From Patescibacteria group bacterium (GTDB taxonomy: Bacteria; Patescibacteriota; Patescibacteriia; UBA2196): a DNA stretch of 64,000 nucleotides. Location: contig JAQTPI010000003.1 in the NCBI GenBank assembly GCA_028748975.1, forward strand, positions 33,064-97,063. The letters are read 5' to 3'. Positions 1,436-48,730 of the stretch are shown in pieces. The notes beneath the pieces were generated by a model. That model saw only the letters and a program-made list of their open reading frames with translations, had not been told where the DNA came from and did not search any database. Each line of letters starts with the position of its first letter. Within the stretch, counting starts at the first letter, position 1. A program made the translations under genes and the position numbers.

Positions 1436-1464
1436 TTGACAGAATTTTTTGGAGGTGATAGAAT
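1436..1464 (+). promoter_or_regulatory. Near-consensus sigma70 promoter (TTGACA-17-TAGAAT) for the small ORF at 1516
   Basis: TTGACA at 1436-1441, a 17-bp spacer, TAGAAT at 1459-1464. A GAGGAGG Shine-Dalgarno lies 8 nt before the ATG. Confidence 0.6.
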
Positions 1465-1515
1465 GGAGATGGTAGTAAATCACTCACAATACAACCGATA
1501 AACGAGGAGGTAAAA

Positions 1516-1725
1516 ATGTTTCTTCAACTCATTCTCCCTGGTGGTAATGGAAATGAAAAATTGAAAGTGTTAAATGACTTCGAAAAATATAAAAAAATAC
1601 AGGTGATATTTGCGCGTGACGCTTTTAGCAACCGCATACCTGACATTATTGTTGATTCGGAGAAAATTGAAAGATTTCCGGGTGATAAAAATTTTTTCTA
1701 CATTCAAAAGAAAGAACGGGGTTAG
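1516..1725 (+). CDS. Hypothetical 69-aa protein (antisense cassette 1)
   Basis: ORF with a strong SD (acgaGGAGGtaaaaATG), its own promoter and a downstream hairpin plus T-run. No recognisable family. Confidence 0.45.
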   Translation: MFLQLILPGGNGNEKLKVLNDFEKYKKIQVIFARDAFSNRIPDIIVDSEKIERFPGDKNFFYIQKKERG

Positions 1726-1746
1726 ACATCTAAAGAAAATTATCAT

Positions 1747-1776
1747 GGCAGGCCCGCTGGTCTGCCTTTTTTCTTT
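1747..1776 (+). terminator. Rho-independent terminator (ggcag…ctgcc + T-run) followed by the TTTGTCAAAAAA motif
   Basis: Stem GGCAG / CTGCC followed by TTTTTTCTTTGTCAAAAAA. Confidence 0.5.
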
Positions 1777-1956
1777 GTCAAAAAACTGGAACGCGACTAC
1801 CACAACCACCCCGGTCCGACGTGATGTCGGACCACCCCTCCTTCGAAAGGAGGGGATAACGACGCTATCCTCCCCTTTCGAAGGGGAGGTGCCCCGACAG
1901 CAGTCGAGGGCGGAGGGGTTGTAATAAATTTATTAGATTATTAAATTATCAGATTA

Positions 1957-2391
1957 TTATTTTATCGTCCCGCCGGCTTTCTCAATCGCCTCTTTAGCGG
2001 AAGCTGATACCGCACAATTAGTAAGATTTAATTTTATTTTAATTTCACCTTTGCCTAAAATCTTCACGCTAAATCTGCTGGTGGCGACCATTCTTTTCTT
2101 TAATAAAATTTCCGGAGTCACCACCTCGCCATCTTTAAAATGATGGGTGAGGTCGCGCAAATTCACAATCGCCGGTTTTTTGTACATGGATTTAAAACCG
2201 CGCAACTTGGGAGTCTGCTCCATTAACTGGCGCATACCCAGGCGCTTCAAATTATGGCGGCCGCCGGATCTGGCGCGCTGCCCTTTTTGGCCCTTGCCCG
2301 AATAGTTGCCGCGTTTGCCGCCACGGCCAATGCGGACTTTTTTAGTCCGTGAACCGCGAGCGGATTTAATTGTGTGAAGAGAGAGGGTCAT
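1957..2391 (-). CDS. rplO: Ribosomal protein L15
   Basis: …RIGRGGKRGNYSGKGQKGQRARSGG… is the characteristic L15 motif. Its position follows S5, so L30 is absent. Confidence 0.9.
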   Translation of the reverse strand: MTLSLHTIKSARGSRTKKVRIGRGGKRGNYSGKGQKGQRARSGGRHNLKRLGMRQLMEQTPKLRGFKSMYKKPAIVNLRDLTHHFKDGEVVTPEILLKKRMVATSRFSVKILGKGEIKIKLNLTNCAVSASAKEAIEKAGGTIK

Positions 2392-3148: not shown

Positions 3149-3502
3149 TTAAAACTTAAGTCCCCCTTCTCTCGCCCCTTCGGCCAGTGCTTTAATTATA
3201 CCATGATATTTAAAACGGCCGCGATCAAAGACACATTCTTTAATTTTCTTTTCCAAAGCCAGTTTGGCAATTTGACCGCCAACTTCTTTGGCATTCTCAA
3301 TTTTTTTACCTTTTAATTTGGCATCATTGGCGCTCGCTATGGTGATTTGCTTTTCATCATTAATTAATTGGGCGCTGACATGCTTCAAGCTTTTGAAAAC
3401 AGACAATCGGGGTTTTTTGGCGGTGCCCAAAAACTTGGCGCGCACCCGGGCCGCCCGTCTCATTATTTTTATTTGTTTGGCTTTTTGTATGTTTGTCTTC
3501 AT
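3149..3502 (-). CDS. rplR: Ribosomal protein L18
   Basis: MKTNIQKAKQ…ARVRAKF…PRLSVFKSLKHVSAQLINDEK…. The start is trimmed to the internal ATG at 3500-3502, because the longer ORF runs into the repeat element. Confidence 0.85.
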   Translation of the reverse strand: MKTNIQKAKQIKIMRRAARVRAKFLGTAKKPRLSVFKSLKHVSAQLINDEKQITIASANDAKLKGKKIENAKEVGGQIAKLALEKKIKECVFDRGRFKYHGIIKALAEGAREGGLKF

Positions 3503-3646
3503 ATAGGTAAACAGATTTTCACAGATAGAGCACGGATTTTCACAGATGCACAGATTAGCTCGCCTCAATTCTCTTGATTAAAGGGATAAATAAATCTGTG
3601 TATTTGTGTTAATCTGTCTAATATCTGTGTCTATTTGTTTTGGTTA
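3503..3646. repeat. Intergenic word-palindrome, CACAGAT/ATCTGTG family
   Basis: ttttcacagatagagcacggattttcacagatgcacagat…atctgtgtatttgtgttaatctgtctaatatctgtgtc. Left and right arms are reverse complements built from the word cacagat. Confidence 0.8.
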
Positions 3647-4192
3647 TTACGCCGCGGCTGTTTTCGCTTTCTTGCCGGCTTTAATCTTAATTATTTCACC
3701 CAAATATCTGATGCCTTTGCCTTTGTAAGGTTCTGGTTTTTTAACGCGCTTAATTTGCGCGGCTGTTTCACCGACTAAAAATTTATCATTACCTTCAATA
3801 GTGATGACATTTTTATCAACGGAAATTTTGATGCCGTCGGGAATAGGAAATTTGACTTCATGAGAATAACCCACCGCCAGCATTAAATTTTTACCGGAGA
3901 CGGAGGCGCGATAACCGACGCCGTTGATTTCCAGCTCTTTTTTAAAACCAACAGTCACGCCCAAAATCATGTTGTTCACCAGCTGGCGCATGGTGCCCCA
4001 AAGCGCACTCACGTATTTTTCTTCTTGAAGAACCACCATATTTATTTCTTTGTCCTTGAGTTCCAAACCGATGGCGGGATGAAGTTTCAGAGTCAATTCG
4101 CCTTTGGGTCCTTTGACCATAACCAAACCAGCCTCGACTTTCACTTCGACTTTGTCCGGAATTTGAATTATTTTTTTACCTACTCTGCTCAT
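3647..4192 (-). CDS. rplF: Ribosomal protein L6
   Basis: MSRVGKKIIQIPDKVEVKV…GPKGEL… is the typical L6 two-domain sequence. Confidence 0.9.
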   Translation of the reverse strand: MSRVGKKIIQIPDKVEVKVEAGLVMVKGPKGELTLKLHPAIGLELKDKEINMVVLQEEKYVSALWGTMRQLVNNMILGVTVGFKKELEINGVGYRASVSGKNLMLAVGYSHEVKFPIPDGIKISVDKNVITIEGNDKFLVGETAAQIKRVKKPEPYKGKGIRYLGEIIKIKAGKKAKTAAA

Positions 4193-4342
4193 AAATATTA
4201 TTTAAGCTCCAAGCTCCAAATTCCAAGCTCCAAATAAATCTCAAATTCCAATAATCAAAATTCAAAATTACGACGGTTTGGAATTTGAAATTTGTTATTT
4301 GGAACTTATTTGGAAATTGGGAATTGGTTATTGGAAATTTTT
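4193..4342. repeat. Intergenic word-palindrome, CCAAG/TTGG family
   Basis: caaattccaagctccaaataaatctcaaattccaataat…atttggaacttatttggaaattgggaattggttattggaaatt. Confidence 0.8.
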
Positions 4343-4771
4343 CTAATATATCTCACAAACCACTTCCCCGCCCAAACCTTTTTTGCGAGCCTCATTATCA
4401 GTCATTAAACCTTGGGAGGTGGAAATGATGGCCATGCCCCAACCATTCAAAACTTTAGGCAGTTTATCTTTAGCGGCATAAACGCGCTTGCCGGGCTTAC
4501 TGACTCTTTGAATGCTCTTAATTTTACCTTCACCATCAGCATCATAAATTAGCCCCAATTTAAGCTGTTCAAATTTAATTCCACTTTCTTTGCTTTTTTT
4601 AATCTTAAGATCTGGTTTGATGATGGACACTTCTTTCACCCAGTTTTCGCGCTCCAAAACCTTTAAGACAGCCAATTTTAATTTTGAATACGGCAAAACC
4701 ACTTCAGCTTTTTTGACCAGCTGGGCGTTTCTGATTCTTGTTAACATGTCGGAAATTGGATCAGTATGCAT
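4343..4771 (-). CDS. rpsH: Ribosomal protein S8
   Basis: MHTDPISDMLTRIRNAQLVKK… is the canonical S8 N-terminus. The start is placed at the internal Met, since 9 upstream codons lie in repeat DNA. Confidence 0.85.
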   Translation of the reverse strand: MHTDPISDMLTRIRNAQLVKKAEVVLPYSKLKLAVLKVLERENWVKEVSIIKPDLKIKKSKESGIKFEQLKLGLIYDADGEGKIKSIQRVSKPGKRVYAAKDKLPKVLNGWGMAIISTSQGLMTDNEARKKGLGGEVVCEIY

Positions 4772-4910
4772 AATATTCTTTAAAGCACCAAATTTCAAAT
4801 TCCAAATAACAAACGGTTGGCGCGGAGCGCCAATTGTTTAGAATTTAGAATTTGGTGCTTGGAATTTGTTTGTATTTTGTAATTTGTTATTTGTAATTTA
4901 CTATTTTAGT

Positions 4911-6753: not shown

Positions 6754-6899
6754 AAATAATTTAAAGCACCAAGCTCCAAGCACCAATTTCCAAACAAATT
6801 TCAAATTTCAATAATTAAAATTTCAAACACGACGGTTTAGGATTTGGAATTTGATATTTTGAATTTGTTTGTTATTTGATGCTTGTTATTTGGAATTTA

Positions 6900-7148
6900 T
6901 TATTGCACCGTCTTCCATCTCTTATCTTTTGATAGCGGCCGGCATTCTATGAAAGTTACTTTATCGCCGACTTTGTGTTCGTTCTTTTCATCATGAACTT
7001 TATATTTTTTGCTGACGGTGTAGCGTTTGAGGTAGCGCGGATGGATTTTAGTATTTTCAACCTTAACCACGATGGTTTTGTCCATCTTATCAGAAACTAC
7101 CGTGCCGGTAAAGGTTCTTTTGATTTTATTATTATTTTCTTTTTCCAT
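6900..7148 (-). CDS. rpsQ: Ribosomal protein S17
   Basis: …RTFTGTVVSDKMDKTIVVKVE…HPRYLKRY…KYKVHDEKNE. Confidence 0.9.
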   Translation of the reverse strand: MEKENNNKIKRTFTGTVVSDKMDKTIVVKVENTKIHPRYLKRYTVSKKYKVHDEKNEHKVGDKVTFIECRPLSKDKRWKTVQ

Positions 7149-7341: not shown

Positions 7342-7431
7342 ATAATACGCTAATTAATTTGCGAATTTTTGCGAATGTGTTTGCGAATATTCGCATAGTT
7401 ATTCGCAAACATTCGCATATTTATTCGGGTG

Positions 7432-7845
7432 CTACCTCTTCACCACCTTATTTTTGACCGGCAACTTATGGCCGGCAAAAATTAAACCCTCTTTAGCAGA
7501 CTTTTCATCCACACCGGAAATTTCAAACATGACTGTGCCGGGTTTCACAAAAACAGCATAATGATCAACCATACCCTTGCCTTTACCCATTTTTGTTTCG
7601 CTGCCATGAAGAGTAATTGGCTTATCAGGAAAAATTCTAGTCCAGACCTTACCACCCTTTCTGATATAGCGCACCAGCACGCGACGCGCGGCTTCAATTT
7701 GGCGGGAAGTGATGCGACTGCCTTCGGTAGATTTCAAGCCAAATTCGCCAAAATTAACCTCGCGGCAGCGCGTGTTGAAAACACCACCAGATTCACCGGC
7801 CGATTTGTGCCATTTTCTGTGTTTTACTTTTTTAGGTGATAACAT
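7432..7845 (-). CDS. rplP: Ribosomal protein L16
   Basis: MLSPKKVKHRKWHK…GEFGLKSTEGSRITSRQIEAARR… is the L16 signature. Confidence 0.9.
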   Translation of the reverse strand: MLSPKKVKHRKWHKSAGESGGVFNTRCREVNFGEFGLKSTEGSRITSRQIEAARRVLVRYIRKGGKVWTRIFPDKPITLHGSETKMGKGKGMVDHYAVFVKPGTVMFEISGVDEKSAKEGLIFAGHKLPVKNKVVKR

Positions 7846-7989
7846 ACAAATAAACAAATTTTCACAGATAGAGCGCGGATTCTCACAGATACACAGATTG
7901 TCTCACCCCACTTCTCTTAATTAGGGGGATGAATAAATCTGTGTATCTGTGTTGATCTGTCTGGTATCTGTGTCTATTTGTTTTGTTTT

Positions 7990-8661
7990 TTATTTTTTCT
8001 TCTCCTCTACTTTGCCAAAATATTCGCCTTTATAAATCCAGACTTTGATGCCGATGATGCCATAGGAAGTTTCGGCGGTGGTGCGGGAATAATCAATATC
8101 GGAGCGCAAGGTGTGCAAAGGCATCTTGCCTTGCGACAACATCTCCCGCCGCGCGATTTCCGCGCCATCCAAGCGGCCGCTAATTGTCACCTTCACGCCC
8201 TGGGCCCCCGCTTTCATCATCGCTTCAATATTTCTTTTCATGGCGCGCCGAAATGGAATTCTTTTTTCCAATTCATTGGCAATGTTTTTAGCGACAATCA
8301 TGGCAGAAAGCTGCGGCTGGGTTACTTCTTTAATGCCGATATTAATGTTTATTCCTTTGGCTACTTTGCCTTTTAAAATATTTTTAACAATATGATTTTT
8401 GACATCTTCCACGCCCGCGCCGCCCTTGCCAATGATGACACCGGGACGAGAAGAAAAAATAGTGATTTTCATGTTATCGCGCGCGCGTTCAATTTCCACG
8501 TGGTCCAAACCGGCTTCATGAAGTTTTTTCATGATATAGCGGCGGATTTTGACATCCTGCTCGGCTTTGGCGGCGTATTCGCGACCCGAAGCAAACCACT
8601 TGGAATTCCAAGAAGTTGACTGTCCGATGCGAAATATTTTTGGATTAACTTTGTGACCCAT
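7990..8661 (-). CDS. rpsC: Ribosomal protein S3
   Basis: MGHKVNPKIFRIG…SKWFA… contains the KH domain. The start is trimmed to the canonical MGHK. Confidence 0.9.
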   Translation of the reverse strand: MGHKVNPKIFRIGQSTSWNSKWFASGREYAAKAEQDVKIRRYIMKKLHEAGLDHVEIERARDNMKITIFSSRPGVIIGKGGAGVEDVKNHIVKNILKGKVAKGININIGIKEVTQPQLSAMIVAKNIANELEKRIPFRRAMKRNIEAMMKAGAQGVKVTISGRLDGAEIARREMLSQGKMPLHTLRSDIDYSRTTAETSYGIIGIKVWIYKGEYFGKVEEKKK

Positions 8662-8803
8662 AATAATATAAAACAAATTTTCACAGATAGAGCGCGGATT
8701 TTCACAGATACACAGATTGTTTCACCTTTATACTTCTCTATTAGAGATAAATAAATCTGTGTATCTGTGTTGATCTGTCTGGTATCTGTGTCTATTTGTT
8801 TGG

Positions 8804-9415
8804 TTAAACAGATTTCCGTCTAAATACCCTTTTTAATATTCCACCCTTGCTTTTTTTTCTGATCTTATCAAGGTGTTGTTTTTCGCGGTGCTTGCCTTCC
8901 ATGCGGATGTCTTCAATGTCTGGCTTATGTTCTTCCCCGGTAGTTGCTTCTTTCCCTTCCGAGTGAACGTTTTCTTCCACTTCTTCTTTGACCAATTTTT
9001 TAGCTTCATCCCAATCTTTAACTACTACTACGTCGTCCCCTTTTTCTTGTTTTTCCTTTTTTTCTTTTTTAACTTCTGTCACGGTTTTATCTTCCAAAAT
9101 TAAAGTGACATGAGTGGTAAATTTATGGATGGGGGTGGCGCGGCCCTGGGCGCGCGGCATCCAGCGTTTTAAAACAGAGCCCTTGTCAGCGCGAAATTCG
9201 GAAATTTCCAGATTTTCTTTTTTCAATTTAAAGTTGTTTTCCGCGTTGGCCACGGCGCTTTTTAATAATTTCAAAAGAGGCAAAGCTGATTTTTTCGGCA
9301 TAAACTGCAATTGTTCCATGGCTTTACTAACTGGCATTTTTTTAACAGCTTCAAGCACGACCCGGACTTTGCGGGGAGAGATGCGGAGATAATTAATTTT
9401 GGCTTGAATCTTCAT
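8804..9415 (-). CDS. rplV: Ribosomal protein L22 with a ~90-aa K/E-rich C-terminal extension
   Basis: MKIQAKINYLRISPRKVRVV…TTHVTLIL is the L22 core. It is followed by EDKTVTEVKKEKKEKQEKGDD… as a charged tail. Confidence 0.85.
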   Translation of the reverse strand: MKIQAKINYLRISPRKVRVVLEAVKKMPVSKAMEQLQFMPKKSALPLLKLLKSAVANAENNFKLKKENLEISEFRADKGSVLKRWMPRAQGRATPIHKFTTHVTLILEDKTVTEVKKEKKEKQEKGDDVVVVKDWDEAKKLVKEEVEENVHSEGKEATTGEEHKPDIEDIRMEGKHREKQHLDKIRKKSKGGILKRVFRRKSV

Positions 9416-9558
9416 AGAGATAAACAAATTTTCACAGATAGAGCGCGGATTTTCACAGATACACAGATTGTTTCACCTTTATACTTCTCTATTAGAGATA
9501 AATAAATCTGTGTATCTGTGTTGATCTGTCTGGTATCTGTGTCTATCTGTTTTGATTA

Positions 9559-9897
9559 TTATTTTTTCGCTGCTGGAGCAACCGGTGCTGCAGGTGTAGT
9601 AGCGGCCGAAGCAACAGCGCCTTGTTCAATTTCTTTCTGCATCTTGCCACCATGACGCACGAATTTTCTGGTCGGCGCGAATTCGCCAAGCTTATGGCCC
9701 ACCATATTTTCTACTACCGAGACGGTTAAGTGTGTCTTGCCATTATGCACGCCGAAAACAAAACCTACCATAGCCGGCGTAATGGTGCAAGCGCGCGACC
9801 AGGTCTTGATGACGGTTTTGTCGCCAATTCTAAGCTTGCCGACTTTTTTCAGTAAGCGTTCATCAACATATGGGCCTTTTTTAAGTGATCTACTCAT
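9559..9897 (-). CDS. rpsS: Ribosomal protein S19 with an Ala/Pro-rich tail
   Basis: [19 protein letters not shown]…[13 protein letters not shown]…, then …[15 protein letters not shown]. Confidence 0.9.
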
Positions 9898-10826: not shown

Positions 10827-10970
10827 AGAAAATAAACAAATTTTCACAGATAGAGCACGGATTTTCACAGATACACAGATCGGCTCACCATGATTTTCTC
10901 ACTACCAGAGAGATGAGCAAATCTGTGCATCTGTGTTAATCTGTTTTACATCTGTGTAAATCTGTCTTGC

Positions 10971-11402
10971 TTACACTCCCTCATAGATCGATATTTTATC
11001 ACCCATTTTTAATGTCACCACTGCTTTCTTCCAATTTTTCAGGTGTCCCACGGAACGGCCGGAACGGCTGGTTTTGCCTTTGACATTAACTATATTAATT
11101 TTAAGCGGTTTGACATTATAAGCGTGTTCAATGGCTTTTCTGACTTCGGATTTATTGGTGCGCGGCGAGACCTCAAAAAGATATTTGTTTTCCGCGCCGA
11201 TTAGAGCGCCTTTTTCCGTAACGAGCGGACGAATCAAAATTTGGTGCGCCATCAGATGGCCATATTTTTTTTCATGCTTATCTTTTTGTTCGCGATTGGC
11301 AATCACGCCAACTTTTTCTTCCTTTTTTTTATCAACTTCAACCACGCCTGCCGCGGCAGATTGCTTTTCTTCCTTTTTAGGTTTTTTGCTGAAAATGCTC
11401 AT
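10971..11402 (-). CDS. rplW: Ribosomal protein L23 with a K/E-rich N-terminal extension
   Basis: …HQILIRPLVTEKGALIGAENKYLFEVSPRTNKSEVRKAIEHAYNVKPLKINIV…. Confidence 0.85.
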   Translation of the reverse strand: MSIFSKKPKKEEKQSAAAGVVEVDKKKEEKVGVIANREQKDKHEKKYGHLMAHQILIRPLVTEKGALIGAENKYLFEVSPRTNKSEVRKAIEHAYNVKPLKINIVNVKGKTSRSGRSVGHLKNWKKAVVTLKMGDKISIYEGV

Positions 11403-11558: not shown

Positions 11559-12305
11559 TTAATTTTTTAAATAAGTTTTCTCAATTACCGGCAAAGCTTC
11601 TTCGGAAATAATAATATTTTTATATTTAAGCAAATCCACCACATTCAAACTGTCAGCGGTAGTTATTTTCACGCCCGCCAGATTGCGGCCGGCGCGGAAA
11701 GTGTTTTTGTCCGATTTCGGAAGCACTACAAGTATAGATAATTTATATCTCTTAATATCAAATTTATTTCCAGTTTCCAGTTTCTGATCACTGGTTTCTG
11801 ATTTCTGATTTCCGGTTTCTGTTTTTTTGCTCTTTTTTATTTCTTTTAAAATCAAGATATTTTTGAAATTCTTCACTACCCCAACAAACTCTTTCGTCTT
11901 CCCTTCGGCCAAACTTAATTTATCAACCAAAAACATTAAACCATTATTAACTTTATCCGAAAGGCACATAAAGAGCGCTTTGGTTTTCATTTTCTTATTA
12001 ACTTTTTGGCTGAAATTCCGGTTACTGCGCGGGCCAAAAGTTACGCCGCCGCCTTTCCAAAGCGGAGAGCGGATGGAGCCATGGCGGGCGCGGCCGGTGC
12101 CTTTTTGTTTCCATGGTTTTCTGCCGCCGCCTCTGACTTCGCCTTTGGTTTTGGTGTGAGCAATCGCCACGCGAGCATTTGCCATTTGCGCCACCATCAC
12201 CTGGTGCACCACGCTTTCTTTTACTGCCACGCCAAACATTGCCGGATTCAATTCCGTTTCTTTAACTTTTTCAGCTTGTAAATTATAGACTGGTAACTTT
12301 TCCAT
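11559..12305 (-). CDS. rplD: Ribosomal protein L4 carrying a repeat-encoded insertion
   Basis: …GGGRKPWKQKGTGRARHGSIRSPLWKGGGVTFGP… is the L4 signature. The insert KKSKKTETGNQKSETSDQKLETGN is encoded by a gtttccagtttctgat… word repeat at ~11745-11830. Confidence 0.85.
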   Translation of the reverse strand: MEKLPVYNLQAEKVKETELNPAMFGVAVKESVVHQVMVAQMANARVAIAHTKTKGEVRGGGRKPWKQKGTGRARHGSIRSPLWKGGGVTFGPRSNRNFSQKVNKKMKTKALFMCLSDKVNNGLMFLVDKLSLAEGKTKEFVGVVKNFKNILILKEIKKSKKTETGNQKSETSDQKLETGNKFDIKRYKLSILVVLPKSDKNTFRAGRNLAGVKITTADSLNVVDLLKYKNIIISEEALPVIEKTYLKN

Positions 12306-12382: not shown

Positions 12383-12411
12383 TTGACATAAATATTTTAA
12401 TTTGCTATACT
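12383..12411 (+). promoter_or_regulatory. Consensus sigma70 promoter (TTGACA-17-TATACT) antisense to the S10 operon
   Basis: TTGACA at 12383-12388, a 17-bp spacer, TATACT at 12406-12411. It is followed by AAAAGGAGAAAcc-ATG at 12466. Confidence 0.65.
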
Positions 12412-12465
12412 TGAATTACAAATAGTTTAGTTTAATTTGGGCTAACTCACACAAAAGGAGAAACC

Positions 12466-12693
12466 ATGAAAAAAAAGTATGCGAGGGTGTGTATTGTTTC
12501 TGTCGTACTCCCACTAATTGGTTTTTTGGGATTACTTCTGCTTCCTAAACAATCCACTATCACCACCACACCAAATGTTCTTGCTGCCATCTCTTTAGTT
12601 CTGATTGGACTTGGCGGCGGAATGTTTATTGGCGCTTACACTATGAACCCAATTCGCAGCATAGTCAAATTAATGATGAAGAAAAAAAGTTAA
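12466..12693 (+). CDS. Hypothetical 75-aa two-TM membrane protein (antisense cassette between rplD and rplC)
   Basis: Strong SD and promoter. Two hydrophobic helices (IVSVVLPLIGFLGLLLL and LAAISLVLIGLGGGMFIGAY). The terminator follows. Confidence 0.5.
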   Translation: MKKKYARVCIVSVVLPLIGFLGLLLLPKQSTITTTPNVLAAISLVLIGLGGGMFIGAYTMNPIRSIVKLMMKKKS

Positions 12694-12708
12694 ATGTTTC
12701 TATCTATA

Positions 12709-12734
12709 GGCAGATCACTAATCTGCCTTTTTTA
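12709..12734 (+). terminator. Rho-independent terminator
   Basis: ggcagatcactaatctgcc followed by TTTTTTATTTGCC. Confidence 0.55.
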
Positions 12735-12790
12735 TTTGCCAAATTTTGAAATGAGTTTTATTTTTATTACTCCTATTACTTTTAATACTT

Positions 12791-14599: not shown

Positions 14600-14760
14600 T
14601 TAAATTTTTAAGCTACGAATTTGTGTCGTTATCCCCTCCTTTCGAAGGAGGGGTGGCCGATAGCAATCGGTCGGGGTGGTTGTAATTTGTATTTTTTACA
14701 ACCCCTCTGCCCTCGACTGCTGTCGGGGCACCTCCCCTTCGAAAGGGGAGGATAACCACT
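14600..14760. repeat. Composite GC-rich palindromic element (CCCCTCCTTTCGAAGGAGGGG + GCCGATAGCAATCGG + …CCCCTTCGAAAGGGGAGG). Family copies are at 1795-1920, 17030-17170, 51705-51830 and 29560-29640.
   Basis: Perfect ttcgaa-centred palindromes, paired across a tggttgtaa…ttacaacc spacer. Confidence 0.8.
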
Positions 14761-16249: not shown

Positions 16250-16996
16250 TTATTCAATCGGTTCCACCAAAAATTCATCCACGTCTTTTTTTTCATCTTT
16301 TACTTCCCCATTCTCCGCGTCAGCTTCAATTATTGGCAAATCTTTATTTACTTCGGCTGGTTTTTCCGCTTCATAATTAACGTCGCCGACAGTTGTTTCA
16401 TTTAGCCACTCATCGTCCAGGGGTTCATCGTCTACTGGAAAAACCGATTCATCCGCTGTGATTGTTTTTTCTTTAAAAACATCGGGTAGATCTTTTTCCT
16501 CGTCCATCTTTAAATCTTTGTCCATAAAATCTTCTGGCCATTTGGGCGGAGTCCAACTTGCCTCGCCAAAAGGCGGGTTTTCATCATCATCGTCATCATC
16601 AGCCAAGGGGTCAAAAGTTTTTTTGCCGAAAATATCTTCCTCGCGATCGCCAAACAAATCTCGGTCATGATTAAAATCATGATTAAAATCAGTATTATTA
16701 TCAAACGGCAGACGCGGCATAAAATCTTCACCTAAATCACGGGGCGAGAAAAAATCCATGTCGGTGCCGAGTCCGATTTCGCGCTGGGCCTGTTTCCACA
16801 AAGAAATTTCGCGGTTGACGCGGTTTAAAATTTCTTCCTCGGTCATGCCGGCGTAATCGGTTTGGTCCGAAACCATTTCTTCATATTTTTCAAGTGGCAC
16901 AATGGCAAATGGTTCGCCAAATTCCGGCACGACAATCATCTTGTCGCCGGTGCGCTTGGCCAGGTCTATGATTTTTTCAAGTTGAGGGGAAAACAT
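16250..16996 (-). CDS. Highly acidic (D/E-rich) hypothetical protein between fusA and tuf
   Basis: 248 aa with DDDDDDENPPFGE and many DxxxD runs. No family recognised. Its location inside the str operon is atypical. Confidence 0.5.
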   Translation of the reverse strand: MFSPQLEKIIDLAKRTGDKMIVVPEFGEPFAIVPLEKYEEMVSDQTDYAGMTEEEILNRVNREISLWKQAQREIGLGTDMDFFSPRDLGEDFMPRLPFDNNTDFNHDFNHDRDLFGDREEDIFGKKTFDPLADDDDDDENPPFGEASWTPPKWPEDFMDKDLKMDEEKDLPDVFKEKTITADESVFPVDDEPLDDEWLNETTVGDVNYEAEKPAEVNKDLPIIEADAENGEVKDEKKDVDEFLVEPIE

Positions 16997-17230
16997 AATT
17001 CAAGTAAATGTCATTCCGAGTCCCGCATTTGCGGGGCGAGAAATCTCGTCGCTATCCTCCCCTTTCGAAGGGGAGGTGTCCCGCAGCAGCGGAACGGAGG
17101 GGTTGTAAAATATTCTACCACAACCACCCTGCTCGCTCTCGCTCGCACCCCTCCTTCGAAAGGAGGGGATAACGATTTTATTTTCTGTATTTATTATAGA
17201 ATTCCTATAAAAGAAGTCAAATAGAAATTC

Positions 17231-17259
17231 TTGACAAAATTTTATAGATTTGCTACAAT
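17231..17259 (+). promoter_or_regulatory. Consensus promoter TTGACA-17-TACAAT
   Basis: ttgacaaaattttatagatttgctacaat, then ataGGAGGatgcagccATG. Confidence 0.6.
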
Positions 17260-17315
17260 AGAAGTAATGGTCTAAACAAGATTAGATTTCTCATAATAAA
17301 TAGGAGGATGCAGCC

Positions 17316-17582
17316 ATGGCAAAGGAAAACGAAGTTTATATTATACAGAGGGGAATTAATCTTGAGGTGGCAGTTCCGGAAAAATATGCCTGGAATTTTA
17401 TGGAAAATTTCCGTCATGTATTTCCGCAAAAGAATTATCCAGAGAGCAGTATTTATTTAAAAGCATGCGAATCTGGTTATGTCATCAAAATAAGAATTCT
17501 CGATAAAGAAGAAAAAATTCTTAAATCTTTTCTGCGAGAATTCTGTGCGGAACGAAATCTTTCTTTTTATAAAACCAAATAA
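17316..17582 (+). CDS. Hypothetical 88-aa protein (antisense cassette)
   Basis: Strong SD and promoter. The terminator at ~17599-17630 (cggttcttaaccg + T-run) is followed by ATTTGTAAAAAAA. Confidence 0.45.
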   Translation: MAKENEVYIIQRGINLEVAVPEKYAWNFMENFRHVFPQKNYPESSIYLKACESGYVIKIRILDKEEKILKSFLREFCAERNLSFYKTK

Positions 17583-17648
17583 TCCAATTGCTTAATGTGG
17601 CCTTCGGTTCTTAACCGGAGGCTTTTTTTATTTGTAAAAAAATGAATC

Positions 17649-17676
17649 TTGACAAAATTTGTGGGTTTGCTAAAAT
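17649..17676 (+). promoter_or_regulatory. Near-consensus promoter TTGACA-16-TAAAAT
   Basis: ttgacaaaatttgtgggtttgctaaaat, then aaaaGGAGGaaaacttATG. Confidence 0.55.
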
Positions 17677-17738
17677 TTAGGCGTGGTTCTTTTGCTCACA
17701 ATAAATGACTAAAAAATCAGAAAAAAGGAGGAAAACTT

Positions 17739-18071: not shown

Positions 18072-18209
18072 GGTATTTTCCTCAACATCAAGGTCAGAAC
18101 CGTATGGCACGCCATGCGGTTTTTTATTTGTCAAAAAACTTTTACTTTTATTACTTCTATTACTTTTAATGCTTTTATTACTTATTCCCTATTCCCTAAT
18201 CCCTAATCA

Positions 18210-26122: not shown

Positions 26123-26141
26123 CTTTTTTCCTCCTTTGTTA

Positions 26142-29495: not shown

Positions 29496-29512
29496 TTATT
29501 CCCCTCATCCCC

Positions 29513-40828: not shown

Positions 40829-41092
40829 CTACTGAATGAGTCGGAGCGGCTGTTTGTTGCGCAGGAAGGGAAAATTTTTGACTTCGGGAAGAAATTCAAA
40901 CTTGGTTTTATTTTCTTGAGTTTCCTCGTCAAAATAATAAAAGAAAGTCCAGCCGGAAAAGAAAAGGTCACCTTCATCATCAACAATTAATTCAAAAAAG
41001 GTGTCTTCATCGGCAAAGAGCCAGGAGCTGACCATGCCATCTTGATATTCCACCGCGCCTAACGGAATTAAACCGTCTTCTTCCCCAGCCAT
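40829..41092 (-). CDS. Hypothetical acidic protein
   Basis: ORF only. Confidence 0.3.
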   Translation of the reverse strand: MAGEEDGLIPLGAVEYQDGMVSSWLFADEDTFFELIVDDEGDLFFSGWTFFYYFDEETQENKTKFEFLPEVKNFPFLRNKQPLRLIQ

Positions 41093-41234
41093 GTTTCCTC
41101 CTGAATGAATTTGATTATTTAAGGAAATAATACTGAATTAATTTTAGCATAATTTAAATAAAAAAGAAAAGAGAGCTGGGTAAGACCATGCTCTCTTTGA
41201 TATTTTTATGATTCAACTCTTTTTTCTTGGTTTG

Positions 41235-41792
41235 TCAGGCACATTTCTTGGCGGCTCGCTGGCGTTTTTGATAATTTTTCTGGGCGGCGATCATTTGGTT
41301 GACTTTGAATACACCCTGCTCATACGCCAATACGAATTTGGCGGTCGGGATGATGTAGTGCTCCCCGTCAATTTCGAAAAACTCCAGCAGGCCCAGGCGC
41401 TCAAGGCGCCGCAAGTCACAGATGTAAAAGAGATATTCCCGACCGGGAGGAGAAGGAAATATTTCCACTGCCGGGCCATCTTCCTCCTTTTCGGTCAATA
41501 CCGGGATAAGGTGAGGAACCTTTTTCCACCACCCCATCTTCTCTGTGCCAAAGAAAAAGCGCTTAACGCTCATGCCGGACCAGTTCGGCAATTTGGCTCT
41601 GATTTGAATATTGGCAAAACGCGTAGCGACAATTTCGGGCTCACATTTGCCAAAATTGAAGAAGTCTGATCCATCACAAATCGGTTCGGAAGTTGCCGGA
41701 CGCGATTTAAAAAAGCGCGTCGGGTGCGTTTCGGGCAGAATCACGAAACCGGTTGTTTCCACCTTTTTCTCTTTCTTTTCTTTGTTTGCCAC
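41235..41792 (-). CDS. Hypothetical protein (GTG start) behind a consensus promoter
   Basis: The minus strand reads TTGACA-acaaattttatatttgc-TATAAT, then the hairpin ttagcccgaatgaggctaa, then AAGGAGGaataagcGTG. Confidence 0.45.
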   Translation of the reverse strand: MANKEKKEKKVETTGFVILPETHPTRFFKSRPATSEPICDGSDFFNFGKCEPEIVATRFANIQIRAKLPNWSGMSVKRFFFGTEKMGWWKKVPHLIPVLTEKEEDGPAVEIFPSPPGREYLFYICDLRRLERLGLLEFFEIDGEHYIIPTAKFVLAYEQGVFKVNQMIAAQKNYQKRQRAAKKCA

Positions 41793-41951
41793 GCTTATTC
41801 CTCCTTAAGTTTGGGATTGTTTATTTTTAGCCTCATTCGGGCTAATAATTACATTATAGCAAATATAAAATTTGTTGTCAAGAATGACAAATAAAATAGT
41901 AGGTTTTGGCAAAAAATAAAAATTCCTTCGAAGTTGTTTCGAAGGAATTAT

Positions 41952-42440
41952 TTAAGAAAATGAGGGAAGTTTTTTGGCCAAAACTACTACCACACAAACT
42001 TTTTTCCTGGGCGGCCATTCCAACTGCAAGCCAGCTTGACGGCAGGTCTTTGTTAGATTCACACCCATAGCTTCCGCGTTCATGAGGACGGTATAACCCG
42101 CTGGCGTTCTTTTTTGAATAAAATTACGTAAAACAGCGCGCAAATGACCTTGCCAGTGGCGCGAATTGCGCAGCGCCCGCTCACTCCAAGCTGGATGCTG
42201 TTTTTTTCTTAATTTCAGATAAGCTCCAAAATCAAAAATGACCGCGGCTAAAAATATTTGGGGCTGAAAAATTTTGGAAAAAAATTCCGCTTGCGGCGGG
42301 CAACCAATTTTTTTGCCAAAGTTGGGGCAACCGCGCGGATGCTCGCAGTATGGAACCAGGCACAAACGTGGTATTTTTTTATTAACACTGGCCCTGACTG
42401 GCCCTAAAAAAACCGTTTTCTTTTTGATGGCCGAAAGCAT
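41952..42440 (-). CDS. Hypothetical Cys-rich protein (CxxxxxxCPxxGxxxxCPP)
   Basis: ORF only. A possible metal-binding N-terminus. Confidence 0.35.
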   Translation of the reverse strand: MLSAIKKKTVFLGPVRASVNKKIPRLCLVPYCEHPRGCPNFGKKIGCPPQAEFFSKIFQPQIFLAAVIFDFGAYLKLRKKQHPAWSERALRNSRHWQGHLRAVLRNFIQKRTPAGYTVLMNAEAMGVNLTKTCRQAGLQLEWPPRKKVCVVVVLAKKLPSFS

Positions 42441-42442
42441 GA

Positions 42443-42889
42443 TTAATTCCTCCTAAAACGATTAATTTTGTCATGGTTTTTCAAAATACCATTTAGTTTC
42501 TCGGCTGCCTGATTTTCAAATTCATCAACTAATTTTTGGATTTCCTTTTTCAATTTTTTTATCAATTTGGCATTTTTCTGATAACGAAACAATTCGCCCA
42601 AATTGAATTGGCGCCAAAATCTTCCCTCAAGATAGTCCTGGAGAGCGACGGAGGTGGAGGGGTTTGCCAGCCAGAAATCGCAGGCTCCCGGCCCTAATTT
42701 TTTATCTTTTTTATTACGGAATTCAAAACGAGAATGTCCGTACGCCCGCACAAAAATGACGCCTTTTTTATTCTGAATAACAATTCTATTTAAGCCAATG
42801 ATGGAAGAAAGAGAAATAATTAAACTCTTTCCTGGGCCAACTGAAAAGTCGGTATGCTGGGTGAGACGGTTTTTTTTAGCCATAAACAT
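42443..42889 (-). CDS. Hypothetical protein
   Basis: ORF only. Its end abuts the downstream gene start (42440 to 42443), so the two are probably co-transcribed. Confidence 0.35.
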   Translation of the reverse strand: MFMAKKNRLTQHTDFSVGPGKSLIISLSSIIGLNRIVIQNKKGVIFVRAYGHSRFEFRNKKDKKLGPGACDFWLANPSTSVALQDYLEGRFWRQFNLGELFRYQKNAKLIKKLKKEIQKLVDEFENQAAEKLNGILKNHDKINRFRRN

Positions 42890-44155: not shown

Positions 44156-44297
44156 AAACGAAATATGTTCATAGTTGTCATTCCGAGCGGAGCGAGGAAT
44201 CCCTTCGCCTTTCTCATGTGGAAAGTATAAGCGATTTCTCCACTTCGCGCCTCGCCCTCGGGGGCTCGGCGCTTCGGTCGAAATGACAAACAAATAG

Positions 44298-44326
44298 TTG
44301 ACAATAAATTTTTGTTATGCTAAAAT
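44298..44326 (+). promoter_or_regulatory. Consensus promoter TTGACA-17-TAAAAT (identical copy at 46400-46428)
   Basis: ttgacaataaatttttgttatgctaaaatggtaatag is repeated verbatim upstream of the 46480 ORF. Confidence 0.6.
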
Positions 44327-44410
44327 GGTAATAGCTGGTAGAAATAAATCATTTGGGCTTATTTCGAGCCAGAATTCTTTGAACAAATCAAATAAAAAGG
44401 GGGAATAATT

Positions 44411-44842
44411 ATGTGTGATAATAACAAAATTTTCAATTTTGGCGATGGTTCACATGATGCAGCAAAATTTATTCTTGGAGTTTTTGTTTTTTTAATCTTA
44501 CTTAATTTATGGACCGTTTTTCATCATGACCACGGAAACACCGCTATTGCTAGTAAAAACACTGGGATGTGGCAAATCTATGATCTAAACAAAGAATTAC
44601 AAAGTACAAAAACCCGCGCGCTCTGTGTTATTAAACTACGAAAAGAATACTTTCAACTCGCTCAAGAGAACAACTACTATGCGCACGATTATGTTGAATT
44701 ACAAAACGAAGAGAATTTATCACGAGAATATTATGAGAAATTAATACGAAAATATAATCAACTGATGAATATAAACTACAGTCTCTTGGGTAGTAGCCCA
44801 TTGGCGGCTACTCTGCACATCAAAAACGATTTACCTCTATAA
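44411..44842 (+). CDS. Hypothetical 143-aa protein with an N-terminal TM helix (antisense cassette)
   Basis: Its own promoter and RBS (aaaaaGGGGGaataattATG). The terminator cccgtctcg…cgagcggg + T-run at 44849-44882 is followed by ATTTGTCAAAAAA. Confidence 0.45.
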   Translation: MCDNNKIFNFGDGSHDAAKFILGVFVFLILLNLWTVFHHDHGNTAIASKNTGMWQIYDLNKELQSTKTRALCVIKLRKEYFQLAQENNYYAHDYVELQNEENLSREYYEKLIRKYNQLMNINYSLLGSSPLAATLHIKNDLPL

Positions 44843-45063
44843 AACCATCCCGTCTCGGTTCATAATCGAGCGGGCTTTTTTATTTGTCAAAAAATATTTT
44901 CTGAATTTATATGTGCCAAGCGGCTGACCCCCTCCGCCCTGCTGGGCGACTCCCCCTTAGCAAGGGGGAGAGATTTAAACTCCCCTCCTTTATAAGGAGG
45001 GGGTTGGGGGAGGTAAGTCGTCGCCCTTATTACTTATTACTAGTTACTTATTACCCCCTGAGT

Positions 45064-46398: not shown

Positions 46399-46399
46399 A

Positions 46400-46428
46400 T
46401 TGACAATAAATTTTTGTTATGCTAAAAT
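46400..46428 (+). promoter_or_regulatory. Consensus promoter, exact copy of 44298-44326
   Basis: Identical 37-bp string. The TTGACA starts 2 nt from the rpoD start codon (46396-46398). Confidence 0.6.
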
Positions 46429-46479
46429 GGTAATAGTAAATTCGCGCGCAAACAATAACAACTCAAAAAAGGAGAAAAG

Positions 46480-46896
46480 ATGAACGCACTTTACTGGGAA
46501 GCTGCGTTGGCCGGGATTCTTTTTGGCACCTATCCTCTTTTTATAAACCGAAGTGGACTTAATGGTAATGTGGCAGCCGGATTTTATTGCCTGATGTGCC
46601 TCGTTGTAATTCTACCACTTGCCTTGCGTAGTATCGACAACGCGGAATTAGCCAAAGCAAATTGGGTTATGGCAATTACTGCTAGCATTATTGGAGCAAT
46701 TGGCACTTTGGCTTTAAACGACTTTTTGTTTAAAACAAAGAGGTCTCCGGAAAAAGCTGCTTCATTATATTTAATAATGTTAATGATTCAGATTTCCGTA
46801 CCGGCCTTTTACAAGTGCATCATTACCCGCCAAGTTTCGCTTGCCAAAATCATTGGTTTTCTTGCCGCTATTTTAGCCGCTTTTCTTTTGCGATAA
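46480..46896 (+). CDS. Hypothetical 4-TM membrane protein (DMT/EamA-like half-transporter) in an antisense cassette between dnaG and rpoD
   Basis: Four hydrophobic helices in 138 aa. The RBS is aaaaaGGAGaaaagATG. A terminator with the TTTTTATTTGTCAAAAAA tail lies at 46915-46941. Confidence 0.45.
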   Translation: MNALYWEAALAGILFGTYPLFINRSGLNGNVAAGFYCLMCLVVILPLALRSIDNAELAKANWVMAITASIIGAIGTLALNDFLFKTKRSPEKAASLYLIMLMIQISVPAFYKCIITRQVSLAKIIGFLAAILAAFLLR

Positions 46897-46957
46897 TTTT
46901 TTCACTCAACTGCTAAAGCCCTTTTTCACTAGGGCTTTTTATTTGTCAAAAAATATT

Positions 46958-48730
46958 TTAGTTTATTTTTGCAAATTCCGAAAGTAGTTGGTTCGCCAAA
47001 TTCATATCACCCGCTTTTTCCGCTAATTTTATTTTTTCCATTAAGTCGGCGCGTTTGCCCGAAGCAATGGTTTGGCGCAAAAATTCAATATCGCCGTCAA
47101 GTTCGTGCGCCAGTTCCCTTTCGCTCATTTCTTCAAACTCGGTTTGGCCTAAAAGATTTAGCGCGTCAAAAAATTCCACTATTTTAGGATTTTTGGCTTC
47201 TTTAATCTCATATTCCAGGGCTTCAAAATTGAGTCCATTGTATTTAGTATAATGGATTACGAGCGTTTTGTAAAATTCCCGGCTCATGTTTTCAAAGTGT
47301 TCTTCGCCCAAAACATTGGCGGCGCGGCCCAAAAAATCAAAACGGCGCATCATCAAGGCCAAGAGGCGCTCGGCAATCATTTCCCGACGGGAAAATTTCT
47401 GCGGAGCAACTTGATTTTGTTTACTCACCGCCATGGGCTTACCCGCCAGTTTATTTTTTATTTTAGCGATTGATTGCGCCAGCATATGCTCATCAATTTT
47501 TATCAATTCAGCCAAAAGTTTGAGATAATGATTTTGCGCGATCGGGTCGGTTAGGCGCGCAATCCAGGGCAGAAGAATTTTAGCCACGATTCGTTTTTGT
47601 TCCAAATTATTCAAATCACGATTAGCCACGGCTTTATCAAAAAAATATTCCATAAAATCATCGGCCTCGGCCACTGCTTTCTGCCAAGCCACGGCATCTT
47701 TTTGCGCCAGTTCATCAGGATCTTTCACACCACTCGGCAAAATTATTACTTTGATATTCATTTCCTCCTGCCAGAGCATTTCAATTCCGCGCACTCCGGC
47801 TGCGGCACCGGCAGCGTCAGCATCAAAACACAAAGCCACGTTTTTACTATAACGTTTGATTAATTTGATCTGGTCAAAAGTCAAAGAAGTGCCGGAAACG
47901 GCCACCACGTTTTTGGTGCCGGCTTGCGCCGTGCCGATGACATCCATGTTGCCTTCCACCAAAATTGCCAAATCATTTTCTTTAATGGCGTTTTTGGCTT
48001 TATCCAAACCATAAACCACTTGGGATTTGTTATAGATTAAAGTTTGCGGGGTATTAATATATTTGGCCGATTCTTTATCATCCATGGCGCGCGCAGTAAA
48101 ACCAACCATATTGCCGTGGTGGTCGGCAATAGGAAACATCAAGCGATGGCGGAATCTTTCATAATACGGCGGCTGGCCGGTATTTTTTGGCACCGTGAGA
48201 CCGGATTGCATAATTTCATTATCGGAAAATCCTTTGCTTTTCAAAAAACCGGAAAGATGAATCCAGGAATTGGGCGCGTAGCCGAGATGAAACTCGGCAA
48301 TTGTTTCCGGGGTGAGATGGCGTTTTTCTATTAAATATTTTAGCGCTACTTCGCCAACGGGCGCGTGGAGTTGATTTTGAAAAAATTCCATGGCGCTGCG
48401 GTGCATGTCCATTAAACGGGTTTTTAGTGTAGTAACTCTAGAATCCTGTTTGACCAATTGCACGCCGGCTTTTTCGGCTAAAATTTTTAGAGCTTCGGGA
48501 AATTCAATTTTTTCCATTTTTTCCAAAAAAGAAAACATGTCGCCGGCTTCGCCGCAGCCAAAACATTTAAAAAACTGCTTTTCTCTGGAGACCATAAAAG
48601 ACGGGGTCTTTTCCGTGTGAAAAGGACAAAGGCCCTTGAAATTGGCGCCGGACTGGCGCAGTGGCACAAATTCGGAAATGATGTCCACAATATCCAGGCG
48701 GGATTTGATTTCGTCAACGTTGGAGAGCAT
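46958..48730 (-). CDS. dnaG: DNA primase DnaG
   Basis: CHC2 zinc finger (CPFHTEKTPSF…CFGCG), Toprim (…EGNMDVI…) and a C-terminal helicase-binding region. Confidence 0.9.
   Translation of the reverse strand: MLSNVDEIKSRLDIVDIISEFVPLRQSGANFKGLCPFHTEKTPSFMVSREKQFFKCFGCGEAGDMFSFLEKMEKIEFPEALKILAEKAGVQLVKQDSRVTTLKTRLMDMHRSAMEFFQNQLHAPVGEVALKYLIEKRHLTPETIAEFHLGYAPNSWIHLSGFLKSKGFSDNEIMQSGLTVPKNTGQPPYYERFRHRLMFPIADHHGNMVGFTARAMDDKESAKYINTPQTLIYNKSQVVYGLDKAKNAIKENDLAILVEGNMDVIGTAQAGTKNVVAVSGTSLTFDQIKLIKRYSKNVALCFDADAAGAAAGVRGIEMLWQEEMNIKVIILPSGVKDPDELAQKDAVAWQKAVAEADDFMEYFFDKAVANRDLNNLEQKRIVAKILLPWIARLTDPIAQNHYLKLLAELIKIDEHMLAQSIAKIKNKLAGKPMAVSKQNQVAPQKFSRREMIAERLLALMMRRFDFLGRAANVLGEEHFENMSREFYKTLVIHYTKYNGLNFEALEYEIKEAKNPKIVEFFDALNLLGQTEFEEMSERELAHELDGDIEFLRQTIASGKRADLMEKIKLAEKAGDMNLANQLLSEFAKIN

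Follow-up and report, generated by a model that had tools for sequence, protein, structure and literature searches.

Predicted antisense transcription units with shared boundary sequences and unrelated small genes in the core operons of a Patescibacteria genome

Why would small genes stand on the opposite strand inside the most conserved operons of a bacterium, each with what looks like its own promoter and terminator? The question is raised by a 64 kb stretch of DNA, called the window here, from a genome of the Patescibacteria (candidate phyla radiation, CPR), GTDB lineage UBA2196. The genomes of CPR bacteria are tiny and streamlined, and little is known about the ways in which genes enter and leave them. 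From position 1 to approximately 48.8 kb of the window, all conserved genes lie on the minus strand, which is the leading strand as indicated by GC skew, and these include the genes for SecY, the S10/spc ribosomal proteins, EF-Tu, EF-G, S7/S12, ComEC, sigma-70 and DnaG. Scattered over 45 kb of this region are seven plus-strand units, each antisense to the core genes that flank it, with two arranged as a tandem pair. A preliminary description of this DNA had reported seven such modules, each with a promoter, a Shine-Dalgarno site, an open reading frame (ORF) of 69-143 amino acids that starts with ATG and a hairpin, and all seven are confirmed by the sequence. The units are as follows.

Unit 1, 1436-1785, plus strand: between rplO and secY; promoter 1436-1464, ORF 1516-1725 (69 amino acids), hairpin 1747-1766, tail with one mismatch 1768-1785; annotated as PHT40_01530, hypothetical protein.
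Unit 2, 12383-12748, plus strand: between rplC and rplD; promoter 12383-12411, ORF 12466-12693 (75 amino acids, two hydrophobic stretches), hairpin 12708-12728, variant tail TTTTTTATTTGCCAAATTTT.
Unit 3, 17231-17642, plus strand: between fusA and the gene for a 248-amino-acid protein; promoter 17231-17259, 5' stem-loop 17268-17284, ORF 17316-17582 (88 amino acids), hairpin 17599-17623, tail with one mismatch 17625-17642.
Unit 4, 17649-18138, plus strand: in tandem, after unit 3; promoter 17649-17676 (TTGACAAAATTTGTGGGTTTGCTAAAAT), ORF 17739-18071 (110 amino acids), hairpin 18096-18123, exact tail 18121-18138.
Unit 5, 29077-29556, plus strand: between the ComEC Competence-domain gene and a separate MBL gene; promoter 29077-29105 (its -35 box overlaps the MBL start, ATGTCAA), 5' stem-loop 29114-29130, ORF 29160-29495 (111 amino acids), hairpin 29513-29536, exact tail 29539-29556.
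Unit 6, 44298-44894, plus strand: between rpoD and the FKBP gene; promoter block 44298-44334, ORF 44411-44842 (143 amino acids), hairpin 44849-44874, exact tail 44877-44894.
Unit 7, 46400-46953, plus strand: fills the dnaG-rpoD spacer; promoter block 46400-46436, ORF 46480-46896 (138 amino acids), hairpin 46915-46938, exact tail 46936-46953.

The flanking genes were confirmed with Pfam (SecY, L15, L4, L3, EF-G, ComEC Competence and MBL, FKBP, sigma-70 and DnaG). The unit products are annotated in an NCBI Patescibacteria metagenome-assembled genome (MAG), PHT40_01530 to PHT40_01880, all seven as hypothetical proteins, and each is a singleton at 90% identity. The best match of L4 among species-representative genomes is 51% identical and comes from a Candidatus Buchananbacteria MAG; the gene for ribosomal protein L30 is absent between those for S5 and L15 in the window. 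Two of the neighbourhoods differ from those first proposed. Units 3 and 4 had been placed between fusA and tuf, which holds for the fusA side, but the other neighbour is the 248-amino-acid protein gene that precedes tuf (16250-16996, minus strand), whose product is 100% identical to PHT40_01650 of the NCBI Patescibacteria MAG. Unit 5 had been described as lying between two halves of a split comEC. Instead, MBL is a gene separate from the ComEC Competence gene across the group, with all 120 listed homologs being 209-320 amino acids long (approximately 285), so that the split is older than the unit.

The 248-amino-acid protein has features of its own. No Pfam domain was found in it, and it is kept between fusA and tuf in the group, with 27-45% identity by tblastn at 14 matching GTDB representative loci and 51-73% identity in closer metagenome relatives. 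The gene's own promoter, TTGACT-16-TATAAT, stands back to back with unit 3.

The seven units are built alike and have predicted near-consensus sigma-70 promoters. Each begins with TTGACA at the first position given above, and this is separated by 16-17 nucleotides (nt) from a -10 box that reads TAGAAT, TATACT, TACAAT or TAAAAT. A TG-extended -10 was scored in six of the seven, the exception being the unit at 29077. A Shine-Dalgarno site of the AGGAG/GGAGG type lies 4-8 nt upstream of every ATG, and folding shows that all seven terminator hairpins are stable (-11 to -19 kcal/mol, z scores of -3.0 to -3.7). Every unit also has a short leader, which in several comprises a 5' stem-loop of 6 bp followed by AAATCACAA. 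In this stem-loop, 97.6% of the positions pair and three pairs are changed on both sides, but 63 of 500 shuffles equal this, so that support for the structure is modest given the shuffle control. When 0.93 Mb of related loci were scanned with a covariance model of the stem-loop, no copies other than those used to train it were retrieved.

What joins the units into a family is sequence identity at their ends. In units 6 and 7 the identity begins exactly at TTGACA and extends for 37 nt, as had been noted before; no shuffle yielded a match, and no exact copy of this 37-mer is present in the metagenome contigs. The interiors of these two units are unrelated, and a second shared block of approximately 31 nt follows at the 3' end, from GGGCTTTTT through TATTTT. 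At this end six of the seven units have a tail that fits T5-6(A/C)TTTGT(C/A)A6-7. The form TTTTTATTTGTCAAAAAA is exact in units 4, 5, 6 and 7 (from 18121, 29539, 44877 and 46936) and has one mismatch in units 1 and 3 (from 1768 and 17625). The preliminary description was therefore right about a shared tail and wrong about its count, which it gave as five. All copies are on the plus strand and none of 100 shuffles gave any. In unit 6, and in units of a relative considered below (contig L082), the block reaches approximately 40 nt and reads TTTTTTATTTGTCAAAAAA-N-TTTTCTGRAKTTAT.

Three further observations concern these blocks. The 37-nt promoter blocks and the 3' blocks of units 6 and 7 are direct repeats that bracket rpoD, so that recombination between them would delete or duplicate rpoD. 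A minus-strand match to a 13-mer of the tail at 31980 was set aside as chance, since it lies inside coding sequence. Two functions were considered for the tail and rejected: as a promoter in the host direction, where the opposite strand reads TTTTTTGACAAAT, a correctly spaced -10-like hexamer is found in unit 6 only; and as part of a two-way terminator, no T-run follows the hairpins in the host direction.

The genes carried by the units, called cargo here, are also unlike their neighbours. Their GC content at third codon positions (GC3) averages 0.35, compared with 0.485 in 27 core genes (p=4e-7). A Shine-Dalgarno site precedes 7/7 cargo genes and only 3/27 core genes, and those three sites are weak. 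The only other genes led by such a site are accessory genes on the host strand, in islands at 22.4-26.4 kb and 40.8-42.9 kb. Core gene starts follow AT-rich sequence; the antisense units and same-strand accessory genes are all led by AGGAGG. The window has no 16S rRNA gene, and approximately half of the Parcubacteria are reported to be without the anti-Shine-Dalgarno motif (PMC9297842). The contrast between core genes without the site and accessory units with a strong one suggests two translation-initiation regimes in one cell.

Such textbook-like parts (consensus promoter, AGGAGG, ATG, clean terminator), together with cargo GC below that of the flanks, could be thought to reveal an engineered construct, an assembly chimera or some other artefact, and engineering had been raised in the preliminary description. 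This can be set aside with near certainty. The identical tail and architecture occur in independent JGI/ENA assemblies of other environmental samples, the variant tail is present in two further JGI contigs, the junctions run continuously into host genes, and one cargo gene is under purifying selection between genomes, as explained below. The units are of natural origin and extend across the lineage: JGI/ENA assemblies of relatives (contigs L082, L111-L113 and L114) have this promoter, leader and tail too.

Are the units old residents of these operons? Contigs of relatives were found with a DnaG scan of metagenome contigs (89%, 69% and 51% identity), and further contigs from JGI, ENA and Logan were found via homologs of the 248-amino-acid protein and the MBL protein. 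In these contigs EF-G is 90-95% identical to that of the window, and the proportion of synonymous differences (pS) is 0.45-0.72. The closest relative (contigs L081, L107 and L108), in which DnaG is 89% identical and pS is approximately 0.45, is without units at the three sites covered by its contigs and has a compact ribosomal operon. Its dnaG-rpoD gap (L081) is 19 nt versus the 565 nt that unit 7 occupies in the window, with all of 46400-46964 missing; the gap from fusA to the 248-amino-acid protein gene (L107/L108) is 39 nt versus 1213 nt; and the L3-L4 spacer (L107) is 14 nt versus 485 nt. In addition, just 11 nt separate the ComEC Competence and MBL genes in L117-L119, and both the rpoD-FKBP and dnaG-rpoD sites are empty in L082. 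No target-site duplication, which the preliminary description had suggested looking for, is visible at the filled and empty site pairs that were compared.

Other relatives have the same sites filled with different genes. Between fusA and the 248-amino-acid protein gene, L082 and the near-identical L111-L113 carry two tandem antisense units with the promoter TTGACAAAATTTGTGGCTTTGCTA, a tail that is exactly TTTTTTATTTGTCAAAAAA and ORFs that encode different small hydrophobic proteins. L114 has one unit there with an identical 19-nt tail, and L115 has one with a tail of the unit-2 type. The cargo at this one site is 88 plus 110 amino acids in the window, 68 plus 78 in L082, 118 in L114 and 71 in L115. 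Eleven cargo proteins were compared pairwise and no significant similarity was found among them. The promoter of window unit 4 recurs in the two L082 units at 26/28 and 25/28 positions and in L114 at 26/28, and the -10 and leader of L114 match window unit 5 at 37/39, with pS between the window and L114 being 0.66-0.72.

The comEC-MBL site is informative about the unit boundaries. In L120, whose MBL protein is 83% identical, this site holds an antisense unit with a 92-amino-acid ORF that is unrelated to that of unit 5. Alignment of the two units shows that approximately 21/23 nt are kept at the 5' boundary (the -35 box plus spacer) and 37/42 nt from the T-run through the tail and beyond, whereas the leader, ORF and hairpin between these boundaries are unrelated. 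The -35 hexamer of unit 5 is the reverse complement of the first codons of the MBL gene, ATGTCAA, so the observation that TTGACA at 29077 contains the MBL start codon was correct. The same string, ATGTCAAGA, is however also present at the empty comEC-MBL site of L117; the hexamer is thus host sequence, and the crossover falls inside the promoter. Finally, in the more distant L083 (DnaG 51% identical), an antisense unit of 109 amino acids lies between dnaG and rpoD with its -35 box 6 nt from the rpoD ATG.

In sum, close relatives differ in whether a unit is present, and the units recur at the fusA-248-amino-acid gene, comEC-MBL and dnaG-rpoD spacers. Boundary blocks are kept across genomes that differ at 45-72% of synonymous sites, and the interior is unrelated. 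At one end the block consists of the -35 box and spacer, to which the leader is sometimes added, and at the other of the T-run of the terminator together with ATTTGTCAAAAAA. The pattern that the preliminary description had named as speaking against its proposal was the same ORFs at the same places between dissimilar flanks; comparison of synteny shows the opposite, with sites that are empty or differently filled between similar flanks. Its central claim, a family with shared regulatory boundaries, unrelated cargo and antisense placement inside core operons, is supported.

The relatives also provided three further observations. A gene for a HicA toxin lies between the antisense unit and the 248-amino-acid protein gene in L115 (666-902), so that the spacer accepts other small accessory genes too. 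In L117 (3305-3631, minus strand), an antisense unit of 108 amino acids with the same promoter, Shine-Dalgarno and terminator design is found between gyrB and secE. The dnaG-rpoD spacer of L082 contains a segment (11796-11882) homologous to window 44226-44313, which comprises a repeat element and a TTGACA promoter-like site that is directed into the 3' end of dnaG and has no ORF behind it. This segment could be what is left of a unit that was lost, or else an expression site that is empty.

It can be asked whether common gene signals alone would produce the resemblance. Here, the units would be old, vertically inherited small genes, or genes that arose de novo in expanded spacers, and they would look alike because stand-alone genes in this genome use the same signals. 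Some of the evidence agrees with this. The promoter, leader and Shine-Dalgarno site are also seen at same-strand accessory genes (26397, 41881 and 25845), and at the first two the 5' stem-loop leader is the same as in units 3 and 5. The promoter, Shine-Dalgarno and terminator design is therefore not unique to the units, and only the GTCAAAAAA tail is specific to antisense ones. Host terminators have the TTTTTTATTT part of the tail in common with the units, although nothing more of it; the low GC3 of the cargo resembles that of intergenic DNA; and four cargo proteins are without a match in the 150 hits listed for the search described below. However, consensus alone does not yield 37/37 identity between two promoters, nor tails of 18-19 nt that are identical across genomes at a pS of 0.5-0.7, nor a 37/39 match between leaders from separate loci of separate genomes. 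The sites are, moreover, empty in the closest relative, one cargo gene has a homolog at another locus and another has hundreds of relatives. We regard this origin as quite unlikely.

The precise boundaries raise a different possibility, which is that of a dedicated cassette system with site-specific recombination, where recombination would take place at the tail, perhaps in combination with the inverted TTGACA of the promoter end, and the recombinase would be encoded elsewhere in the genome. In 10 units of three lineages the tail hardly varies, and the adjoining hairpins are unrelated in sequence. The tail also includes the reverse complement of TTGACA(AA), so that the units are bounded by short inverted repeats. 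The shared 5' and 3' blocks of units 6 and 7 surround unrelated interiors, and the flank of the L114 unit is a mosaic of two window units. Against these stand the following: no integrase, transposase or other recombinase was found in 38 distinct window proteins scanned with Pfam (some small ORFs were outside the scan) or in the called genes of related loci; no attC-like imperfect palindrome with RYYYAAC and GTTRRRY cores was found; target-site duplications are not visible; the -35 hexamer at comEC-MBL belongs to host coding sequence and occurs in the empty site as well; and the inverted repeat is only 6-8 nt, with one copy being a predicted working -35 box. Such a system is unlikely. The same findings, together with the units' own promoters and scattered positions, led us to abandon the integron-like interpretation of the preliminary description.

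If the units carry genes, are these genes functional? Homologs of the cargo were sought with an exhaustive HMMER search that gave 240 hits at E<=1e-3, of which 150 were listed. The unit 7 protein supplies nearly all of the 240 and belongs to a conserved family with hundreds of relatives, which are proteins of approximately 136 amino acids with four membrane helices and EamA Pfam hits below threshold (EamA-like). Its nearest homolog, in L121, adjoins defence genes and does not form an antisense unit of this type. The unit 6 protein has a homolog (P0025) that is 71% identical over 91 residues (52-142). The proportion of nonsynonymous differences (pN) between the two genes is 0.19 and pS is 0.85, which identifies a constrained protein gene under purifying selection. 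P0025 adjoins smpB in L116, so the same cargo occurs at a different locus, where the leader, N-terminus and tail differ from those of unit 6. For the unit 3 protein a homolog was found at 47% identity (P0160). Thus, the earlier statement that the encoded proteins are unrelated to each other holds, but the statement that they are unrelated to any family does not.

The proteins themselves offer few clues. No significant hit for any cargo protein was obtained with Pfam, PHROGs, PADLOC or NCBIfam (best PHROG E=0.002). Several of the ORFs contain hydrophobic stretches, and one at the N-terminus of the unit 6 protein could be a membrane helix. A single-sequence AlphaFold2 model of the unit 3 protein has a predicted local distance difference test score (pLDDT) of 81 and a small alpha/beta fold, for which no significant match was found in the PDB; the model of the unit 5 protein (pLDDT 48) is unusable. 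In viral contigs, close relatives of three cargo proteins and the promoter and leader strings were not found. The 19-nt tail gave 22 single hits there, which were taken as chance in AT-rich DNA.

Alternatively, the units could be mainly regulators, with promoters that fire head-on at the host genes, so that interference or antisense RNA would tune genes such as rpoD, secY and the MBL nuclease gene and the ORFs would be secondary. The position of several -35 boxes is consistent with this: one is 1 nt from rpoD, one overlaps the MBL ATG, one is 4 nt from the longest FKBP ORF, and that of L083 is 6 nt from rpoD, as mentioned above. The orphan promoter of L082, which has no cargo and points into dnaG, fits as well, and a sigma-70-dependent promoter that opposes read-through of rpoD would make a simple negative feedback loop. 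On the other hand, units 1-3 stand 77-234 nt from the host start, a strong Shine-Dalgarno site and an intact ORF are present in all units, the unit 6 gene is under purifying selection and the unit 7 protein belongs to a conserved family. The closest relative also manages without units at the three sites compared. A primarily regulatory role is accordingly something we consider improbable, although the units may still dampen host genes such as rpoD.

The account that we favour, and think rather probable, is that the units are natural, moron-like accessory transcription units which reside in intergenic hot spots of core operons and are turned over by recombination. They would be horizontally acquired or exchanged genes whose cargo is swapped by recombination within or beside the short conserved boundary blocks, apparently with no dedicated recombinase, as for the minimal mobile elements of Neisseria. 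DNA uptake could be a route, since the genome encodes ComEC and ComF-type proteins; the competence genes in the window are those for ComEC Competence, MBL and a ComF-like protein. Patescibacteria are treated as naturally competent in literature cited in PMC12455944. The uniform antisense orientation is probably a survivorship effect that reflects what selection allows. A strong terminator in the sense orientation would cut off the downstream essential gene, whereas in the antisense orientation the lack of a T-run after the hairpin in the host direction would allow host read-through. Transcription of a unit would then meet host transcription head-on, and its RNA would be complementary to host mRNA in the intercistronic region.

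Several points weigh against this account. The promoter and terminator activity of the units is predicted from sequence, and exchange is deduced from single assemblies, in which no recombination intermediate or population polymorphism was observed. At 45-72% synonymous difference, an unconstrained orthologous ORF would also look unrelated, so that replacement is not cleanly separable from very fast divergence; the long open frames in AT-rich DNA nevertheless argue for constraint. The proteins of units 1, 2, 4 and 5 have only self-matches among the 150 HMMER hits listed. The boundary blocks are common to the window and the more distant L082 and L114, with units being absent at three sites of the closest relative, a distribution that needs either loss with compaction or lateral spread. 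The gyrB-secE unit of L117 is without the GTCAAAAAA tail, so the tail marks a sub-family and is not a requirement. Last, the tail is kept beyond the known needs of a terminator, which the moron-like model does not explain.

This last point leaves some room for a bolder idea, which is possible but doubtful. Here, the boundaries (promoter plus 5' stem-loop leader, and T-run plus ATTTGTCAAAAAA(N)TTTT) would be the portable part of an undescribed CPR chromosomal expression site. Recombination would use them as handles, or an unknown factor would bind to them; new cargo of one gene each would enter and leave the spacers of essential operons, and the antisense arrangement would couple cargo expression to the control of genes such as rpoD.

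How do the units compare with known systems? Morons are additional (more) DNA with its own promoter and terminator, of the type known from phages HK97 and HK022 (Cumby, Davidson and Maxwell 2012, PMC3594210). Like these, each unit is a single gene with a predicted promoter and terminator of its own, lies between operon genes, is absent from close relatives, differs from its neighbours in base composition (as seen in the GC3 values) and often encodes a small protein of unknown function. Unlike morons, the units are in core chromosomal operons (ribosomal protein, fusA-tuf, dnaG-rpoD and comEC) and not in a phage or prophage, are uniformly antisense to the host operon and share promoter, leader and tail sequences mutually and across genomes, a feature that the definition of a moron does not include. 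Residence in a phage or prophage was not found: the neighbours are core genes, PHROG hits are not significant and, for the three cargo proteins and the promoter and leader strings, no close relatives were found in viral contigs.

The minimal mobile elements of Neisseria (Saunders and Snyder 2002), in the form in which PMC1797815 cites them, resemble the units in that the same site between conserved genes is empty or holds alternative, unrelated cassettes, no mobility gene is seen with them and the host encodes DNA-uptake machinery. Measured against that citation, the units differ in being bounded by regulatory sequences of approximately 20-45 nt, not by flanking genes, in the recurrence of these blocks at several unrelated sites of one genome, and in having a single small gene as cargo; exchange by transformation would here be conjectural. 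Integron cassettes likewise have variable single-gene cargo, a structured and conserved 3' element and different cargo at the same position. In contrast to them, each unit has a near-consensus promoter of its own, the units occur singly or in pairs at dispersed positions and not in a one-way array, and at the 3' end they have ordinary GC-rich terminator hairpins, which are unrelated in sequence and precede T5-6ATTTGTCA6. Neither intI nor attI was found in the window scan. Correia/NEMIS and REP/BIME elements and miniature inverted-repeat transposable elements (MITEs) are also short conserved sequences that spread in spacers and may carry promoters, and the genome of the window is itself rich in REP-like hairpin repeats. 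The units are, however, 350-600 nt long with ORFs of 69-143 amino acids, and, unlike in MITEs, the inverted match of their ends is just the TTGACA(AA) described above, with no visible target-site duplication.

The wider meaning is that the most conserved CPR operons (ribosomal protein, fusA-tuf and dnaG-rpoD) are landing sites for small accessory genes, whose turnover is visible between genomes with 90-95% EF-G identity. The shared boundary sequences provide a simple handle for finding such units in other genomes and let one ask whether short regulatory motifs serve as recombination sites.

In the same-strand accessory islands (22402-26397 and 40829-42889, minus strand), the genes are preceded by strong Shine-Dalgarno sites, and several of them by consensus promoters and the leader as well. 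An operon of two genes here (26315-25943) encodes paralogous small hydrophobic proteins of 57 and 59 amino acids, and two ORFs (22402-23312) resemble each other in N-terminal sequence. An ORF at 25380-25772 (minus strand), which is receiver-domain-like by eye, is broken by a G8 run at 25603-25610 with the protein continuing in another frame; the run either reflects a sequencing error or is a tract prone to slippage.

Nearly all spacers of the ribosomal-protein operon are 90-156 nt long and hold long stepped hairpins made of tandem units of 7-8 nt, of the types CACAGAT/ATCTGTG, TTGCGAAT/ATTCGCAA and CCAAGCTCC/GGAATTTGG. As RNA these fold with -37 to -45 kcal/mol (z scores of -5.4 to -7.4). The ribosomal spacers of the closest relative (L107) are 1-26 nt with no stepped repeats, and L082 has the CACAGAT type. 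The hairpins may serve in the processing or stabilisation of RNA, or they may represent a repeat family that is spreading. Their positions in the window are:

Stepped hairpin repeats: 3500-3649, 7843-7992, 8668-8818, 9419-9569, 10831-10973.
Stepped hairpin repeats: 1336-1434, 7343-7441, 21159-21217.
Stepped hairpin repeats: 4197-4345, 4776-4905, 6757-6904, 31155-31316.

A second kind of repeat, GC-rich palindromic arrays of the CCCCTCCTTCGAAAGGAGGGG and GTCATTCCGAG...GAATCTC type, is common to L082, L114 and L120. These arrays often stand just beyond a unit tail and also occur without a unit. In the window they are found at:

Palindromic arrays: 1790-1900, 14624-14760, 17010-17175, 29560-29626, 44911-45020, 51731-51825.

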